A stretch of DNA of 37,659 nucleotides, from positions 1 to 37,659 of the forward strand of contig LT635939.1 in assembly GCA_900128565.1 (NCBI GenBank). Reading direction: 5' to 3'. The translations under genes were made by a program, and so were the position numbers. This DNA comes from Stramenopiles sp. TOSAG23-6 (taxonomy: Eukaryota). Positions 2,610 to 11,000 of this stretch are shown here, one piece after another; the first letter of the stretch is position 1, and each line of letters begins with the position of its first letter. The notes under the pieces are model-generated. The model worked only from the letters and a program-made list of their open reading frames with translations. It did not search any database and was not told where the DNA came from.

Positions 2610-4272
2610 ATGTCTTCCTCTGTAGTCGTAAAGCTTTATCGAACTGCACTTCGAACTGCACGCAGGTTTGATTTACAGCCAGCATTCAAGGCATTGCTAG
2701 GAGTCCATTCAGAAGAGTGTCTACAAAATGAAATGTCAGAATTTCTACGCGGGGCTTCATATTATCTTCCTAGCAATTGTGACGGAAAGAAGGACACTTT
2801 AAACTCTTCATTGTATGAGAAGGTTCGCGTTGTATTTAGACGTGAAAGTCATAGTACAGATAATTATACTACAGATTTACCTAATGGTACTGACCTGGAT
2901 CTTTATCGAATCTTTGCATTTTTGCGTATTATTAACGCTGCGAAAGAAGTTGGTGAAAATGCAGGTTTAACTTTCAATAAAACTATCAGGACTGACACAT
3001 CAATCGTAAGTGAATTGAACAATATTAAAGACGATAATAATGGTAATATAAACAAGTCATATTATAAGTTAGATGTTACCGCTGCTAAACAAATGAAACA
3101 TCAGAATAATAAGCAATATTTCACTCCAGGAACTCTATTAGTTTCTCATCCAAATTCACAATATGCACCATTTGCAAAGTCTGTTGTTCTTTTGATGCAA
3201 CATGATGAAACAGGTGCTTCTGGATTTATATTAAATGGTGAAAATTCATCAAAAAGTTGTGCAGATTATTTGAAAGAGTCTGTCGAGAAACGTTCAGATG
3301 AAGAAAAAAAAAGTAATTTTTTTGAGAACAAATCTGAAAATGATCAACCATCTGATACTATTGAACGTTTTCGTGATGTTATCAAAAACAATGATAGAGT
3401 AAAAGTATCAAAAGCAATGAAAGCAGTAATGATGCAACATATAAATATGAAGTCATCTGATATAAAAACAACTCTAGAAAAAGAAAATTGTATTGATGAG
3501 AGTAAAACAAAAAATCAAAATGTTGAAAGTGTTGAATCTCCAACTGACTCTGTATTGAAAAAAACGAATTCTTTGCTGGAAAAAACTTTTCCTACTCTAG
3601 GTGGCCCAGTTCCAACGCCACATCCTGGAAATATTACAACTTTACAAACATATTTTGATGATTGTGTGACAACAGAAAAAAATGGTACTAAAGTATTTTC
3701 ACCTAACCCTAACCCTAATGATGATGATACAACAGAAAAAAAGGATACCATAGTATTTTCACCTTCATTTGTGAAACATTTTAATAAAAGTGTTGAAAAT
3801 AATTCAAAATGTCCTTCTGTGTATATGGGTGGTGAATTTTATACAATTGCAAGTAGTTTTGCTAGAAATGAGTCAAATAAATGGAGAACTTTTACAGGCT
3901 ATAGTAGCTGGAAACCAATGCAACTAGAACACGAAATATTTGATGGTTGTTGGATACCATGTGAGTTGAATGATTATTCTGCTTTACTTGATGTCATATT
4001 TGACGAAAACATTTTAGAATACAAAAAAACAGATAAAAAAGTAAAAAATACAAAACATATAAAGAAACATTGTGATATAGATGTTACAGAAAAGAGAAAG
4101 ATGTTGTGGACGACACTACTCACTGAGCTTGGTGGTGAATATCAACATTTTGCAAAGTTACATAATTTAGAATTTCATCACTTTGACTTTTATAGCAGTG
4201 GTGGTGATAATTCATGGTATGAGTATGAAGATATACTGGAAGAATGGGAAGGAGAATTTGATGATGATGATA

Positions 4273-4308
<36 letters not shown>

Positions 4309-4328
4309 GTAATGTCAAAGTCGCTTAA
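2610..4328 (+). CDS. DUF179 (YqgE/AlgH, UPF0301) family protein with N-terminal LYR-like motif and acidic tail
   Basis: Motifs PGTLLVSHP, FAKSVVLLMQHDETGASGFILN, GGPV, FTGYSSWKPMQLEHEIFDGCW and WTTLLTELGGEY occur in DUF179 order. The N-terminus reads VVKLYRTALRTARRF. Confidence 0.88.
4260..4307 (+). repeat. (GAT)n microsatellite encoding poly-Asp
   Basis: Seen directly; one AAT interruption. Confidence 0.95.
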
Positions 4329-4619
4329 TATAATACAGTATGAAAAAAATTCTTTTGAAAAATAAAAAAAAAAGAAACATTATTTTCAAAATTCTAATTT
4401 CAAAAATTTCAAAACCGAAAAATCGTATCCAAACGGATCTCTCTCTCAACCTACTATAGCAGCAGTACAGTGTCTAAGAACACATAATATTGAAGTTGAA
4501 TACACACAACACTCTTATTTTTTTATAAATTCTACAATCATTGCATTGTAAAACACCACATATAGAGATTCTTGAGTGCTAAAATTATTGCAGAAGTATC
4601 TCAAATAAACCTATAGACC

Positions 4620-7600
4620 ATGGAGAAAAGTGTTTTCAAATGTGCTCTTCTAGACAAAACTCAACCTATTTTTAAAGAGTTGCTTTTAGTTGGACGTCCA
4701 AATGTTGGAAACTTTTCAATGTATGCAGAATATCTACAAAAAATATGGGAGACGCGATATTTGACAAATAATGGCCCAAATGTACGCCAGTTGGAAAGTG
4801 TTCTTTCAAACATGCTTGGAGTGAAGAATGTTGTTTTAGTTTCAAACGGCACAGTAGGATTGGAAGTCGTTTTGCGTACTTTTAACTTCCCCCGTGGTGC
4901 GGAAGTAATAGTTCCATCATTTACATTTGTAGCAACGGCACAAGCATGTACTAATGCAGGNTTNANCNTTNGTTTTTNGTGATATNGATCCAAGAACACA
5001 CTGCTTAGACGCAACAAAACTTCGAGGGTTAATTACCCAACAGACTGTAGCAGTTGTCCCTGTACATGTATGGGGGAATGTTTGTGATGTGACTGCTGTT
5101 CGCAATGTATGTAATGAAGCTATTTTAGCGCGGAATATTGACAGAAACAGATGTCCTGATAATGATACAAAAAATATAGACAATGAAAATCACAAAAAAA
5201 TAAAAAGTATAAGAATTATTTACGATGCGGCACACGCTTTTGGTTGTGGTTTGCGTGATGATAAGGGTAAAACTATTCGTGTAGGTAACTTCGGTGATGC
5301 GGAAGTATTCTCATTTCATGCTACAAAGTTTTATAATTCAATTGAAGGTGGTGCAATAGTCACAAATAATAACGAAATTGCTGAAAACTGCCGATTATTT
5401 CGAAATTTTGCCTTTTCAGGATATGATCAAGTAATAGGACCGGGTACTAATGGTAAAATGAGTGAAGTCCATGCTGCAGCTGGTTTAACCAACTTACATA
5501 ATTTATCAACAGTTTTACATGCAAATTTGAGAAATTATGAAGTGTATTCTTCACGAATAGCAAATATAAAAGGATTACTTTTATTTTCACTCGAAGAAAA
5601 TACAAAAAATACAAAATTTCAGAAACACTTTTGCTCCAGTGTATTTTCACAAAAATCTAAAAAATCTAAAAGTTTAAATGCAATATCATTACCTAATGAA
5701 TTACTCAATAATTATCAATACATTGTAGCGCGTGTAGACCCTTTACAATTTGGATTAGATAGAGATGATATAGTGAAATTATTACATGCTGAAAATTGTT
5801 TGGCACGAAAATATTTCTTTCCAGGAGTGCATAAATTTAAAACATATTTAAAAATTGATCCATTTGCTGATAAAAGACTTTTTCATACAAATGAATTGTC
5901 ACAAAATGTCATAACATTTCCTACAGGAACTTCTGTTACTTCAAATGAAATTCATAAGTTGTGTGACTTTTTACAATGTTTACAACGAAATTCAATAACA
6001 GTAAAAGCTCAGTTAAATAAAATTAAAGAACTTTCTACTAATCACAGTACGAAAGTTAAACAAAGTGTAAATTCAATTGAAAAAGATGCAGTTCTAAGTA
6101 GATTATTAAAAACACAAGTAAATCTTTCAACTACGCAGTGCAATATTGAAGAAGACACGGAATTTGAAAATGATAATAATAGTAAGACTATGAACAACAA
6201 TAATACTACAAATGATAATAAAATTGTAGTATATAATATTTTAGTGTTTCCGTGTGGATCTGGAATTGGTCTGGAAATAATTGATGCTTTGTATGGATGT
6301 AAAAATGTTAATGTAATAGGAGCGACATCTACGTGTACTTCACATCATGGATCGCTAGTTCTTAAAAAGGTGTACGAAAATTTACCATTTCTTACAAAAA
6401 AAAAAAGAGCTTGCAGACGCCATTGAAAATATCATTATTGAATCTCAAATTGATTTTATTTTTCCTGCATATGACGTACGTTTTCATCATTCATTTAAAT
6501 TTGTTTTTTTCCTAGATAATTCAATGGTTTCTTACCTAACAATTTTTTTTTGTGTCATATTTTTCATTCTACATGATGCAATTAACTTTTTAGTTGAAAA
6601 TAGGGCAAAATTTAAGAAATTAGGTTGTGATATTTTAGCACCATCGTTAGAAACATGTGATATCTGTAGATCCAAAAAAAAAACTTATCTTTATTTTTCA
6701 AAACATGAGGAAGAAAAAGTGATAACACCAAATGTGTTTGATGTCAGTGATTTAGTAAATGATCCAACATATTCAAGTAACTTTTTGTATCCTTTATTTG
6801 TGAAACCATCAAAGGGTCAAGGAAGCCAAGGTGCAAAAGCAGTGTATAATGATACACAATTGCGAGTTCATTGTAATAATATTAATGAACCTATTGTGAT
6901 GGAAATGTTACCTGGTCCTGAGTATACAGTCGATTGTTTTTCTTGTGCATCATCTGGACTTGTTATAGCATTGCCAAGAAAAAGAATGCGGATCCGAGGG
7001 GGTATTAGTGTTGCTACATCACCGCTTCTTGTACATAATGATAAACAAAAAAATGAAAAGGAAAGTATTTTGTTAAATGAGCAAATTCAAGAAATGGCAA
7101 GTTTCATACATAATGAATTAAAAATGAGAGGAGCTTGGTTTTTTCAAGTAAAACTAAGAAATAATGGTACGGCCGTACTACTTGAGATTGCTCCTCGAAT
7201 TGCCGGGGCAATGTGTTTAAGTCGTGCTAGAGGGGTGAATATGCCTTTGTTAACGATTTATGAAAGACTAGGTCAAAATGTACAATTACTTTTAAATGAA
7301 ACCTCAAACAATCAAGATACAAAATCAGTAATACCTTATGGATGCGGTCGTGGATTAATTGAGATAAGTAGACTTGACAAGGCATACATTAATAGATTTA
7401 CAGTACGTTTATTTAGTGACAGAATAAATGTAAAAAATCAAAATAATCAATCAGCTTTGAGTAGTGTAGCTTATATACCTGATGATAATGAAATTATTAG
7501 CACTTCTATCGGTGCAATTTATGTTGATTTTGATGATACTTTGAACCTAAGAGGAGAATTAAATACAAAATTAATACGAATTTTGTATCAAGGTATAAAT

Positions 7601-7936
7601 TATAATGCTCGTATTGTTTTAGTGACACGACATGGGCGTTCCTTACAGGACAAAACTGCCGCAAGAGCATCTCTTCGTCAAAAACTTGGTCGATTTCGTA
7701 TGACACAAATATTTGATACAATTATACATATTTTAGATGACACGAAGAAGAGTGTTTTTATCGAAAATGATTTGAAAAAATATTCAAAGGATATTTCTAA
7801 AGATTTCGTTTTCGAATGGACATCTATATTTATTGATGATTCATTTGTTGAAAGAAAAGATGTAAGAGATGCGCTTGGTATTCCAGTTTTTGGTATGGGT
7901 CAACTTGATGTTTTGTTAAATGATAAAAATTGGTAA
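4620..7936 (+). CDS. Fusion protein: DegT/DnrJ/EryC1/StrS (DesI/VioA-like) NDP-4-keto-6-deoxysugar aminotransferase + ATP-grasp ligase + HAD-like domain (~1,070-1,100 aa after joining three ORFs)
   Basis: Aminotransferase motifs: LLVGRPN, LTNNGP, EVIVPSFTFVAT, VPVHVWG, IIYDAAHAFG, VFSFHATK (PLP Lys codon 5326-5328), EGGAIVT, GTNGKMSE. The same frame continues through an Asn-rich linker into NILVFPCGSGIGLEI (~6235). After a +1 shift at A11 it reads IDFIFPAYD|DAI, YPLFVKPSKGQGSQG, EMLPGPEYTVD and LLEIAPRIAG (ATP-grasp), then IYVDFDDTL, LVTRH and IFIDDSFVER (HAD). The frame break at 4961-4986 lies within Ns. Confidence 0.85.
6476..6574 (+). other. Putative 99-nt intron (GTACGT donor, TACCTAAC branch-like site, pyrimidine tract, ends AT not AG)
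   Basis: T-rich segment inside an A-rich coding strand. Removing it restores FPAYD-DAINFL. It is in frame and stop-free. Confidence 0.65.
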
Positions 7937-8050
7937 ATTGTGATAAAATTAAAGTTTGTTGATTTAATATTTTTTTTATATATAAAATTATACATAATTC
8001 ATTTAGTTCGTGTTGTATCAAATATTTACTATGTACTAGTAAATATCTTC

Positions 8051-11000
8051 TTACGTAATTTTCATTTTTTTTAATCTGTCAAACTCTAACCTCCACTTTT
8101 CATTATGAATCACACGAGTATCCACCCAATCGTTGAAACCAGAGTCTTCCTCATCCATTACATCACATAATTGTAATAAAACACGAGGTTTCAGCATCGT
8201 TTTATTACTATTGTTACATTCTATTTTATTCGCATTCATCAGGTGTAATATATATGAAAGTAATTTATACTGTTTTTTACTATACATATTATCCTCATTA
8301 GTAGTAGTAGTAGTGCAAGCTAATTTTTCACCATCACTTGCTATTGCATGATCATTTGATAGACCTGCTTCATTCATAAATACACTCAAACGATTCATTT
8401 TCCTATTCTTATATTCTTTTTGTAAAAAATCAATTGATGTAAAGTCATAGACATCACAATCATTCAATTGATAAAGACTATCATCACCATTATCATCATT
8501 ATCATCATTGACATCATTCAATAACACGTGTAATAATGCATTCCAAGATAAAGCTGACGGAGAAATATGACACAAATACAAATAAGAAAATATTTCTATT
8601 GCATAACGAGAGCATTGAGCATTATATATCATTAACGTGAACATTTCACTTGTTGCATTACCATTTTTTACCAATTCGAAAAAAAAAGTATGGGCAAATT
8701 TTCTACCCCACCCATTAGACCCAGCTACATGCAATAATTCACTTATTTTTTTCGTACGATTTTTTTGTAATAAAATTAAGGTCGATGATAAAACTGGTTC
8801 ATGATGTAAATCAAGTATCCTTCTATTTCTATCATCTACAATAAATTTTGTAGAAGACAGTACAGATGGATCAATAGAAGTATATTTTTCTAATCTCAAA
8901 GCTACAGCAGTTGCTTTCTCATACTCCCCCCATAAACAAAAATTATGTATTATTGTATTGTATGTCATACAATCGTATATCGAATATTTTGTTAATAACC
9001 TATACAGTCGTCGAATGTCACGATCTAAAAAACACGAATTCGCCATTATTTGACATAAAATTGAGTTACATTCATTATTTTTTACCATTCGATCAAAGAA
9101 TTTCCAAGCCTCTTTTCGTGCATAAAAGTCAGTTGATGTAGTATGACTTGCACCTTGTAAATCACTACTACCGAGTAATACGGACAGTTTTGTGCTCTGC
9201 CATACGAGAATATCATCCTTTGTATTTCGTGTCTTTCGTATATTTCGTATATTTTTATTTTGTTTTGTACTAACATTAAGTATACCAAACATTTCCTTAA
9301 TATAATAATCATAATTATGTATATTTTCCATATTTGTAATCTCCTCTTTCATAATTCCGGTATTATCATTACCAATATTATCATTACCAACAGTACTATT
9401 TTTTNCTANTTTNTTNTTTTNTTTTCCTCATCAAAAAAAGATTGAAAATTGCGATATCCATCACGTAGACATGTTTGTTCCACTGCATCCAATAATAAAT
9501 CATGTACTAGATATTCACTTGGTATATTTTTTTCACAATGAAAAAATAATTGTATTGCAATCTTTCCAGAGGGAGAGGTTTCAATTATATCAATAACATC
9601 ATCAAATACATTGTTTTCACTTTTTTCGTGTTTTTTATATGAAATAGTAGAGTTTAACATTGCACTATAATATTGAAAAATTTGATTTTGAATTTGTTGA
9701 ATATATTTTGGTGTACTTCTCGTTTTCATTAAATCATGCCCTGTTGTACCTAATATACCTAGTAATTCATTTATTAATATTTTTCTATAATAATTCATCG
9801 AATTTGGTATATATTGCAATTGTATCGCGGCATCTAAATATTTACTATTTTCAAAATTGGAAAATGTATTATTTTCGGAAAAAATAGGGTTGATCGTATT
9901 TTGTTGATATTCTTTGGCAGTTTTGTATCTACCTTCAAAATACATTCTCATTAAAACAGTTGCAAAAAATCTTGCATCATTTTGTATAGTAGGTATTCTT
10001 TTTTGCAGTTTTTGTAATATATTAGATGCTTGCAATGAAGTAATACATGCATTTGTATGAAGCATATTATAATATATATCATTATTATTACTATTATTAT
10101 TACCATAAGTAGTATTTTGCGTATTTAAAATCAGAAATTTTTCAAATAAATTCCATAATCGAAATTGATATTTTAATCGATTTGACCAACATCCTTCGAT
10201 GTGATCATAGTTACCAGGTATCCATTCCTTCGAAGAAGGTAAACTATTGCTATACTCACTCCAACGTGGATATACACTTTTTTCTAATAATTTCTGTACG
10301 GCTGAATTTCTCAACTTATTAATTTCAATACTTTGCATTTTTACATTCTTTTCAGGTTCACAAATATTTAATAAATAATCTGTATATGAATTTGGTATAG
10401 CAGCCATATTCTGACCAACAACAAAAGCACCTGATAGATCCCCATTAACAATTAATAATTCTAATAAATAGTTATAGACTTCAGTCGATAGAAATGATCC
10501 ACGTTCAGACACGAAATATTGTATGTTTTTTTGTGTTGATTCGAAATCATGTAACAAAGCTTTTAAACGGTAGTGAAGAATTGTTGCAGAAACATCAAAA
10601 TTCAGTTGAGTGGATCGATTCATATTTGATATAGGCTGCATTAAATGTGAATGGTCATAAAACATATTTTCAGCTTCAACACAACTTAAGCCGGAAAATT
10701 GAATATTTTCTGTATGAGATGAATACAAATCACGAAATCTCCTTTTTTTTGTGTTCGATAAAAATTGACAAAAACCCTTTGACATATACAAAATCTTATT
10801 TTTCTTATTTTCTACAGGATTATGTAAAAATTGCAAAAGAAATTGCATTCTCTCCATCGATATCTGTTGACGCATTTGTACTTGTGGCATATTTCGTCTT
10901 CGATTTTGTTTTTGTGTCATATTTCGTGTTTTATCTTGTACTCGCTTTTGTATATTCAAAATAGCTCTTTCCACATCAATGACTTTATTAGTATTCATTG

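Follow-up and report, generated by a model that had tools for sequence, protein, structure and literature searches.

An aminotransferase read in one frame into an ATP-grasp-HAD protein: a probable fused gene of bacterial ancestry in a marine stramenopile

Can a marine protist weld neighboring genes of a bacterial sugar pathway into a single gene, and what would such a gene make? Contig LT635939.1 of Stramenopiles sp. TOSAG23-6 (assembly GCA_900128565.1), whose 37,659 nucleotides we call the window, raises this question at positions 4620–7936 of the plus strand, where three open reading frames (ORFs; 4620..4982, 4954..6426 and 6524..7936, translation table 11) encode a DegT-type aminotransferase followed by an ATP-grasp module and a HAD domain. 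These three ORFs are most likely a single gene of about 1104 codons, and we consider it quite probable that this gene is real, functional, a true fusion and bacterial in ancestry. A preliminary description of the locus had named an aminotransferase, a linker, an ATP-grasp module, HAD motifs, insertions and an intron-like segment, all of which we recovered at the following positions:

4620–4958, plus strand: N-terminal part of the aminotransferase, frame 0 (PF01041, 65 bits; TIGR04427, 72 bits)
4961–4986, plus strand: low-quality patch with 7 N, at which frame 0 passes into frame 1; fits one extra T in the T run at 4973–4977
4987–5990, plus strand: main part of the aminotransferase, frame 1 (PF01041, 162.5 bits; TIGR04427, 237 bits; PDB entry 2po3, E 6e-45)
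~5131–5215 and ~5590–5700, plus strand: two insertions in the aminotransferase found only in the window (alignment A4)
5326–5328, plus strand: codon of the pyridoxal phosphate (PLP) lysine in SFHATK (alignment A4)
5991–6219, plus strand: low-complexity linker rich in Asn, Thr and Lys, in the frame of the aminotransferase, with no counterpart in the bacterial proteins
6220–6395, plus strand: N-terminal subdomain that precedes the ATP-grasp core, KIVVYNILVFPCGSGIGLEI to LPFLT, frame 1 (aligns with residues 1 to ~60 of homologs P0001–P0030)
6396–6406, plus strand: run of 11 A, at which frame 1 passes into frame 2 in the assembly (10 A in independent contigs)
6407–6475, plus strand: end of the pre-ATP-grasp subdomain (ELADAIENIIIESQIDFIFPAYD), frame 2 (alignment A1; predicted local distance difference test score, pLDDT, of 90 in the model, residues 1–20)
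6476–6574, plus strand: T-rich in-frame insert of 99 nt, 33 hydrophobic residues, between FPAYD and DAINFLVEN
6575–7501, plus strand: ATP-grasp core (FVKPSKGQGSQG, LPGPEYTVDCF, WFFQVK, LLEIAPRIAG), then an inter-domain stretch with insertions found only in the window (PF15632)
7502–7936, plus strand: cap-less HAD-fold domain (model pLDDT 91.1; HAD structure matches)
7526–7540, plus strand: HAD motif I, D-F-D-D-T, followed by a conserved TR and a conserved K (KKS)
7829–7843, plus strand: HAD motif IV, F-I-D-D-S, of the same domain
7934–7936, plus strand: stop codon of the fused gene, in ORF 6524..7936

The join between the two halves is read directly in the second ORF. As the preliminary description had claimed, the aminotransferase runs on in an open frame into the ATP-grasp start: ORF 4954..6426 passes without a stop from the aminotransferase through the Asn/Thr-rich linker into KIVVYNILVFPCGSGIGLEI, a stretch that matches the N-terminus of stand-alone ATP-grasp-HAD proteins (alignment A1). 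The linker comprises ~75 Asn/Thr/Lys-rich residues, after which the same ORF enters KIVVYNILVFPCGSGIGLEIIDAL. The Asn/Lys-rich insertions that had been reported within the domains are likewise evident, as blocks present only in the window in alignments A1 and A4. At the 5' end, the ATG at 4620 is the earliest in-frame start downstream of a stop at 4614–4616 and is not followed by a signal-like leader; the peptide LLVGRPNVGN of the window aminotransferase aligns with LHVGRPNIG of its bacterial relatives. No domain contains a stop codon.

Where one break had been noticed before, the assembled gene is interrupted at three sites (4961–4986, 6396–6406 and 6476–6574): the N patch, the run of 11 A and the 99-nt insert. 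Correcting the poly-A and N-patch breaks yields a gene of 1104 codons, or 1071 codons without the insert. We compared positions 4987–8050 with public metagenome and metatranscriptome contigs of four runs; stretches of the gene that these runs leave uncovered carry no weight either way. At 6396, the sole covering DNA contig (run X2, depth 3.8/3.8) and the sole covering RNA contig (run X6, a poly(A) metatranscriptome, depth 9.4/9.4) each carry one A fewer than the window; runs X3 and X5 have no coverage of this site. Deleting one base in the poly-A run joins ...LPFLTKKK to ELADAIENIIIESQIDFIFPAYD, and since the break is absent from independent contigs it represents an assembly error or a rare variant. 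At the N patch, frame 0 can be followed to ..VRF, and skipping one T gives AGLxVRFxDIDPRTHC, with the same length and register as AGLKVRFADCTTDTHC of P0154, the closest aminotransferase; from this comparison we infer a single surplus T. Homopolymer-length errors, and not mutations, are the best explanation of both frame breaks.

To which families do the modules belong? The aminotransferase is matched by PF01041 (DegT/DnrJ/EryC1/StrS) with 65 bits on 4620–4958 and 162.5 bits on 4987–6423, against a cut-off of 19.8. Among NCBIfam models the best is TIGR04427, DesI (72 and 237 bits for the two pieces), and the best relative of solved structure is again DesI (2po3, E 6e-45). Aligning 17 aminotransferases (A4) revealed 57 columns identical in all of them, including S109–K114 (SFHATK, with the PLP lysine); the Schiff-base lysine lies in this SFHxxK motif. 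The bacterial aminotransferases that neighbor an ATP-grasp gene score 493–546 bits on TIGR04427, with the next family at 232 bits or less. DesI is thus the best-matching family, yet window and bacterial relatives all stay below its equivalog cut-off of 650 bits, so that we do not assign a sugar substrate; the earlier assignment to the DesI/VioA enzymes that make viosamine is not established. A literature search that paired ATP-grasp with viosamine returned nothing.

The ATP-grasp part reaches 73.7 bits on PF15632 (cut-off 29.1), and five ATP-grasp Pfam families match at E ≤0.01: ATPgrasp_Ter, ATP-grasp_3, Dala_Dala_lig_C, ATP-grasp_4 and CPSase_L_D2. The TupA-like ATP-grasp family is not among these five. 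PDB chain 2pn1 matches the third ORF in a sequence search (E 3.5e-5), and Foldseek with the ATP-grasp model returned biotin carboxylase, pyruvate carboxylase, carbamoyl-phosphate synthetase and 2pn1 (E 2e-13 to 1e-12). Models for named functions fall short: the window obtains 102.6 bits on NF009405 (PRK12767, carbamoyl phosphate synthase-like) against a cut-off of 390, and the bacterial homologs at loci L059 and L004 obtain 75 and 124 bits on PRK12767-type equivalogs against a cut-off of 218. In alignment A1, 39 columns are identical in 21 of 21 ATP-grasp-HAD sequences, the window included.

The C-terminal domain carries YVDFDDT and FIDDS, and it was less easily placed by sequence: no Pfam HAD family matched its 154 residues or those of three bacterial counterparts at E up to 10, and a 39-sequence profile of the domain found 2zg6 as its sole PDB match, at a marginal E of 0.94. 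Folded alone with the 39-sequence alignment, the domain gave a confident model (pLDDT 91.1), whose best Foldseek matches are MDP-1, the 3'-phosphatase of T4 Pnkp, the phosphatase domain of soluble epoxide hydrolase and GmhB. The best 50 matches listed by VIA-align 2 all belong to the HAD superfamily (Z 11.1–13.4, root-mean-square deviation 2.3–3.7 over 116–129 residues), and two of the HAD structures matched, 7shg and 8a0c, are phosphatase domains from multienzymes that synthesize polysaccharides. HAD catalysis relies on motifs I (DxDxT), III (Lys) and IV (DD). The residues D374, D377, K448, D477 and D478 do not vary across the 21 sequences of A1, and D376 and T378 are almost as constant. As judged from the predicted structure, the C-terminal domain is a cap-less HAD phosphatase-type domain, in agreement with the HAD domain that had been proposed from DFDDT and FIDD.

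We then asked how these modules are arranged in prokaryotes. A HMMER search of 1.84 billion representative proteins with the ATP-grasp-HAD part gave 2060 matches at E ≤0.001, 260 of them at E ≤1e-30; the best 150 of the 2060 are 290–778 amino acids long, mostly 420–440, and most match in two stretches. ATP-grasp and HAD thus form a single protein of ~420–435 amino acids in bacteria, archaea and giant-virus contigs. The statement in the preliminary description that they occur as separate bacterial genes was wrong, and since the pair is already fused in prokaryotes, the eukaryote-specific event is the join of aminotransferase to ATP-grasp only. Prokaryotic members (e.g. WP_094556918.1 of Synechococcus sp. 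1G10) are homologs of positions 6220–7936 with 38–47% identity and share the domain order and the invariant residues; unlike the window gene, they stand alone, with no aminotransferase in the protein in the 202 loci read below or among the best 150 of the 2060 matches. In one genome per prokaryotic species, at least 566 pattern matches encode such a relative (566 of 600 among the matches listed). Their names are generic: 'ATP-grasp domain-containing protein', 'carbamoyl phosphate synthase-like' or 'carbamoyl-phosphate synthase large subunit'. No ATP-grasp-HAD homolog came from E. coli genomes or from phage records, and plasmids yielded 16 weak matches, the best on a Cupriavidus metallidurans megaplasmid, where it is without annotation.

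Gene neighborhoods were read from 202 loci, namely the 80 best genome loci, 80 metagenome loci and 42 viral loci. In 66 of the 80 genome loci there is a DegT-like ORF within 10 kb, and in 37 it adjoins the ATP-grasp-HAD gene (gap <300 bp, same strand), on its upstream side in 20 cases and on its downstream side in 16, with one overlap. DegT-like ORFs are also present within 10 kb in 61 of the 80 metagenome loci, and, unlike in prokaryotes, within 8 kb in only two of the 42 viral loci. Nine genome loci have a DesI-like aminotransferase that matches that of the window with at least 200 bits. Clusters with the DesI-like pair also hold Wzm/Wzt-type ABC-2 or TagH exporters, GT2 glycosyltransferases, TylF-type and class-I methyltransferases, RmlC and WbuX. 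Of the 80 genome loci, 12 have an RmlB-like gene within 10 kb, and in seven RmlA and RmlB stand beside the pair without RmlC or RmlD. One of these is Bacillus pumilus, where RmlA and RmlB, each scoring above its NCBIfam cut-off, are followed by a TarF-like transferase, ATP-grasp-HAD, the aminotransferase, GT2 and TagH.

This B. pumilus locus (L004, 5760–16710) is itself a cluster of the wall-teichoic-acid type, with two TarF-like glycerophosphotransferases and neither RmlC nor RmlD, in a culturable organism. Two homologs, P0003 (L082, 2657–4585) and P0010, are ATP-grasp-HAD proteins fused at their C-terminus to a class-I S-adenosylmethionine-dependent methyltransferase, and loci L059 and L020 carry separate, overlapping genes in the order aminotransferase, ATP-grasp-HAD, methyltransferase.

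Do both halves descend from such a pair? A quick maximum-likelihood tree of 87 ATP-grasp-HAD proteins joins the window to six metagenome proteins (P0001, P0002, P0003, P0007, P0009 and P0010; Shimodaira-Hasegawa-like approximate likelihood ratio test, SH-aLRT, 97), inside a 35-row clade (SH-aLRT 99) that holds eight of the nine loci with a DesI-like neighbor. A tree built from 81 aminotransferases pairs the window with P0154 as its sister (SH-aLRT 99), within a 36-row clade (SH-aLRT 100) made up of 19 aminotransferases that neighbor an ATP-grasp-HAD gene, 16 top database matches and the window. Separate trees thus place both halves in prokaryotic subfamilies that co-occur, as predicted by joint transfer of an adjacent pair. 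The trees do not single out one donor; among named proteins, one from Synechococcus is the nearest sister to the ATP-grasp clade of the window (SH-aLRT 92). Together, gene neighborhood and both trees support the proposed bacterial ancestry and fusion of neighbors from a surface-glycan cluster. Some members of the window's clade look eukaryotic. One of them, a close relative of P0001 on metagenome contig L121 (12–1954, GC 0.54), has a hydrophobic N-terminal leader and no aminotransferase, and its HAD domain is split between the conserved K and FIDDS by ~300 nt that change the frame, in an intron-like manner; this suggests that L121 is a second eukaryotic carrier of an ATP-grasp-HAD gene.

We found the fusion of aminotransferase and ATP-grasp in none of the 202 loci and in none of three protein searches, which are negatives bounded by the data searched and no proof that no other fusion exists. 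Separate ORFs encode the two halves in every one of the 80 genome loci, and among the 80 metagenome and 42 viral loci there is no stop-to-stop ORF that contains both. No protein of 892–2545 amino acids matched the ATP-grasp-HAD query, an ATP-grasp family was present in none of 30 long DegT proteins (query: aminotransferase, linker and the pre-ATP-grasp piece), and none of the best 150 of the 2060 ATP-grasp-HAD matches contains an aminotransferase. Long fusions of DesI-like DegT proteins do occur (P0274–P0303), with GT2, a methyltransferase, TPR plus GT41, or an AMP-binding acyl-activating enzyme as partners; the last of these, P0281 (971 amino acids), is another architecture of the type 'aminate, then acylate'.

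The third interruption, the 99-nt insert, is missing from 20 of 20 homologs in A1, which read ..AYDDAI.FL.. across its position. It starts with GTACGT, holds the intron-like TACCTAAC and ends in ..CTACAT, without AG; the first AG downstream of TACCTAAC is at 6592–6593, and its use would remove the conserved DAINFLV. In the model, the insert is the main disordered segment (pLDDT <50 over residues 23–54). Because independent DNA contigs (X2 records 5 and 6) cross both of its ends, the insert is real DNA. Its open frame is not significant, since a stop-free frame of 99 nt is expected by chance in about one case in six (~17%; 3461 of 20000 shuffles, 741 of 4494 intergenic 99-nt windows). It would be either an intron whose 3' end is unusual or an insertion that stays in the message and is translated into a hydrophobic loop.

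Many other contigs in two seawater DNA runs match only 6476–6511 (36 nt) and 6533–6565 (33 nt) of the insert. They diverge exactly at 6476 (seven and six loose ends), with a loose-end consensus that again holds TACCTAAC, and the summed depth at the matched stretches is about ten-fold higher than elsewhere (42 versus ~4). As the matches are short, T-rich and ~90% alike, we treat them as a lead and not as a finding. The window contains no further copy of the insert. The insert may be part of a dispersed, introner-like element whose 3' end is non-canonical.

How does this gene compare with known systems? In the dinoflagellate Karenia brevis, MviM and WecE form one protein with a 10-residue spacer and host-like GC, the proteobacterial mviM and wecE are operon neighbors 9–89 bp apart, and jakobids and a heterolobosean have WecE homologs as well (Nosenko and Bhattacharya 2007, PMC2064935). 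The Karenia protein resembles the window gene in joining a bacterial DegT aminotransferase and an operon neighbor into one polypeptide in a marine protist, with GC adapted to the host and, in one paralog, a gained hydrophobic N-terminus. The two differ in partner (a GFO/IDH/MocA dehydrogenase upstream in Karenia, ATP-grasp-HAD downstream in the window), in aminotransferase subfamily (WecE/desosamine-like versus DesI-like) and in host, and the long low-complexity linker and the 99-nt insert set the window gene apart from the Karenia protein. Fusion of a DegT gene after transfer to a protist is therefore already published; what is new here is the ATP-grasp-HAD partner, the subfamily and the host. 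With DegT transfer and fusion on record in protists, and each module ordinary alone, the locus does not establish a new principle. It does add a second independent case of a marine protist welding a segment of an amino-sugar operon into one gene.

Two bacterial systems bear on the chemistry. In Bacillus cereus ATCC 14579, the enzymes Pat and Pyl lead to UDP-yelosamine, with the ATP-grasp enzyme Pyl ligating 2-oxoglutarate to a UDP-4-amino-4,6-dideoxy sugar (PMC11626204). This matches what we propose for the window gene, namely an aminotransferase followed by an ATP-grasp ligation, with the genes together in a glycan operon; unlike the window fusion, Pat and Pyl are separate proteins. We know of no HAD domain on Pyl. 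In Campylobacter jejuni, Cj1437 converts dihydroxyacetone phosphate to (S)-serinol phosphate (PMC11800397); in strain NCTC 11168 the ATP-grasp enzyme Cj1438C, described as TupA-like (PMC11800379), then amidates glucuronate with serinol phosphate, and the HAD phosphatase Cj1435 dephosphorylates the product (PMC11800397). This series comprises the same three activities as are proposed for the window gene (aminotransferase, ATP-grasp amidoligase, HAD phosphatase) and decorates a surface polysaccharide. Unlike in our proposal, its amine is a small phosphorylated amino alcohol and its carboxylate a glucuronate within the polymer, and, unlike in the window, its TupA-like ligase is fused to a GT2 glycosyltransferase and its phosphatase is separate.

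These comparisons allow a scheme to be drawn for the window gene. Two neighboring prokaryotic genes for a surface glycan (O-antigen or teichoic acid), one for a DegT aminotransferase and one for an ATP-grasp-HAD protein that was already fused, would have been transferred horizontally as a pair and then brought into one reading frame by a linker of host type. The aminotransferase would convert an NDP (nucleoside diphosphate)-4-keto-6-deoxyhexose into the 4-amino sugar; the ATP-grasp module would activate a carboxylate as its acyl phosphate and join it to the sugar amine as an amide; the HAD domain would strip a phosphate ester borne by the carboxylate or its partner; and the fusion would channel the intermediate from module to module. 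We favor the 4-keto-6-deoxyhexose scheme because the aminotransferase is closest to DesI and because RmlA and RmlB are the sole sugar-nucleotide genes nearby in some loci. Given a real gene, we put this specific chemistry (4-amination, N-acylation, dephosphorylation), which is drawn by analogy, at just under even odds. The whole statement, that one fused nuclear gene derives from a prokaryotic neighbor pair and carries out the proposed sugar chemistry, strikes us as somewhat more probable than its negation.

What the locus would mean follows from the same scheme. The natural fusion and the strong gene neighborhood together provide Rosetta-stone evidence that a DesI-like aminotransferase and ATP-grasp-HAD act on the same intermediate, and it suggests for the anonymous, widespread ATP-grasp-HAD family an ATP-dependent N-acylation of an NDP-4-amino sugar followed by dephosphorylation. 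A stronger version, that the protist uses a channelled tri-functional enzyme to make a bacterial-type N-acylated 4-amino-4,6-dideoxyhexose for its own surface or for a secondary metabolite, and that the family consists of amino-sugar N-acyl ligases with a built-in phosphatase, is in our estimate rather doubtful. Were it true, the product would be of the residue type that decorates or caps bacterial O-antigens and teichoic acids, and a function would be revealed for a family encoded by hundreds of prokaryotic species as well as by giant viruses. These data suggest that sugars of bacterial type may be displayed by such marine protists; that the product ends up in a surface glycan is pure conjecture.

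Several observations weigh against the fused gene and its proposed chemistry. The correction at the N patch is derived from the comparison with P0154. The gene is supported by contigs of two poly(A) metatranscriptome runs, which match 5035–5654, 6294–6445 and 6987–7245, in both halves of the gene, and five of eight matched contigs are at least 99% alike to the window; among these short RNA contigs, however, none spans the linker or the 99-nt insert, and DNA carry-over may account for them. None of the four runs provides a contig for 6209–6293, just upstream of the ATP-grasp start, so that the join between aminotransferase and ATP-grasp rests on the window assembly and the open frame. The metagenome contigs differ from the window at 14 single bases (five synonymous, nine nonsynonymous, two in the insert), which are too few and too shallow for selection to be read clearly from them. 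Precise GT-AG excision of the insert is impossible, as the sole in-frame GT-AG pair (6480..6593) would delete the conserved DAINFLV. On the side of function, the window pieces (72 and 237 bits) fall far below the TIGR04427 equivalog cut-off of 650, we found no characterized member of the ATP-grasp-HAD family, and 65 of the 80 genome loci have no Rml gene within 10 kb.

Could the locus be something other than one working gene? A decaying relic of a transfer, inactivated by two frameshifts and a 99-nt insertion, would account for the breaks in the assembled frame at 4961–4986 and 6396–6406 and the interruption at 6476–6574, and nine of the 14 single-base differences in the metagenome contigs alter the protein. 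The poly-A frameshift is, however, missing from independent DNA and RNA contigs, the other coincides with the 7-N patch and is consistent with a homopolymer error of one base, and the insert is in frame; the domains are free of stops, 39 and 57 columns are identical across all sequences of the two alignments, and poly(A) RNA libraries contain matching contigs. We therefore regard a pseudogene as quite improbable. The gap in contig coverage at 6209–6293 would also suit two separate genes, or a chimeric join made during assembly of an amplified sample, as would the eukaryote-like P0001 and L121, which stand alone with a hydrophobic leader, and the contig of P0002, which has no aminotransferase in the 540 nt upstream. 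Yet one frame stays open for 1437 nt, from the aminotransferase end through the linker and on over the first ~58 ATP-grasp residues, with neither a start codon context nor an intergenic gap between the halves; the aminotransferase comes first, as in 20 of the 37 adjacent bacterial pairs, and composition is uniform over the region. These points make two genes or a chimera very improbable.

If the gene is real, its route and its chemistry may still differ from the scheme above. Acquisition through a giant virus, instead of directly from a bacterium, is suggested by the 42 viral contigs that encode ATP-grasp-HAD, several of them named giant-virus metagenome-assembled genomes (e.g. L163, L168–L170, L172, L176, L179 and L191), and by P0003, a member of the window's clade that does not look eukaryotic: its contig is compact, and its neighbors there are a TylF-type methyltransferase and the C-terminus of an Rpb2-type RNA polymerase subunit; most members of that clade (SH-aLRT 97 or 92) are without known origin. 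The viral proteins themselves are more distant: 33 full-length viral homologs score 110–173 bits against the window (nine partial or weak ones lower) versus 170–203 bits for bacterial ones, none of 19 viral proteins falls in the window's 8-row clade, whose sister is the Synechococcus protein, and the viral L162 joins just outside that clade on an unsupported branch. With a DegT-like ORF near only two of 42 viral loci, a virus would not deliver the pair, and the aminotransferase L136 of Mimivirus matches very weakly (E 1e-4). We judge the viral route improbable. A somewhat better candidate, still unlikely in our view, keeps the architecture and follows the C. jejuni HS:2 chemistry, in which a small phosphorylated amine made from a keto-phosphate is ligated to a carboxylate (e.g. 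a uronic acid) and then dephosphorylated. Among characterized systems, it is the only one in which we found the three activities acting one after another, and the role of the phosphatase in it is obvious. In bacteria HAD is permanently fused to the ligase, and 65 of the 80 loci have no Rml gene nearby. Against it stand DesI as far the best model for the bacterial aminotransferases (493–546 bits versus at most 232), the seven of 80 loci with RmlA and RmlB and without RmlC or RmlD beside the pair, and the description of Cj1438C as TupA-like, a family absent from the five that match the window.

The setting of the gene is eukaryotic, as had been noted before: its neighbors encode a Nup98 autopeptidase, an AlgH-like protein, a PPR protein, an RPA-like protein, a SAM domain, an EML-type propeller and Tcp10. 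GC is 0.30–0.32 over the fused gene, like that of its flanks, and composition is uniform. A database search with the RPA-like neighbor placed it no more finely than Eukaryota. No tRNA genes were found in the 37,659-nt window. Other N or N patches lie at 1550, 9405–9421, 18458 and 19742 (15 N in total), that at 9405–9421 being at the end of a minus-strand ORF of 1001 amino acids; local assembly quality is low, and further apparent frame breaks in the window may be artefacts. Just upstream of the fused gene, at 2610–4328, an AlgH-like (DUF179) domain lies within a long Asn/Lys-rich protein with a terminal run of Asp, a further bacterial-type family inside a protein of host style.

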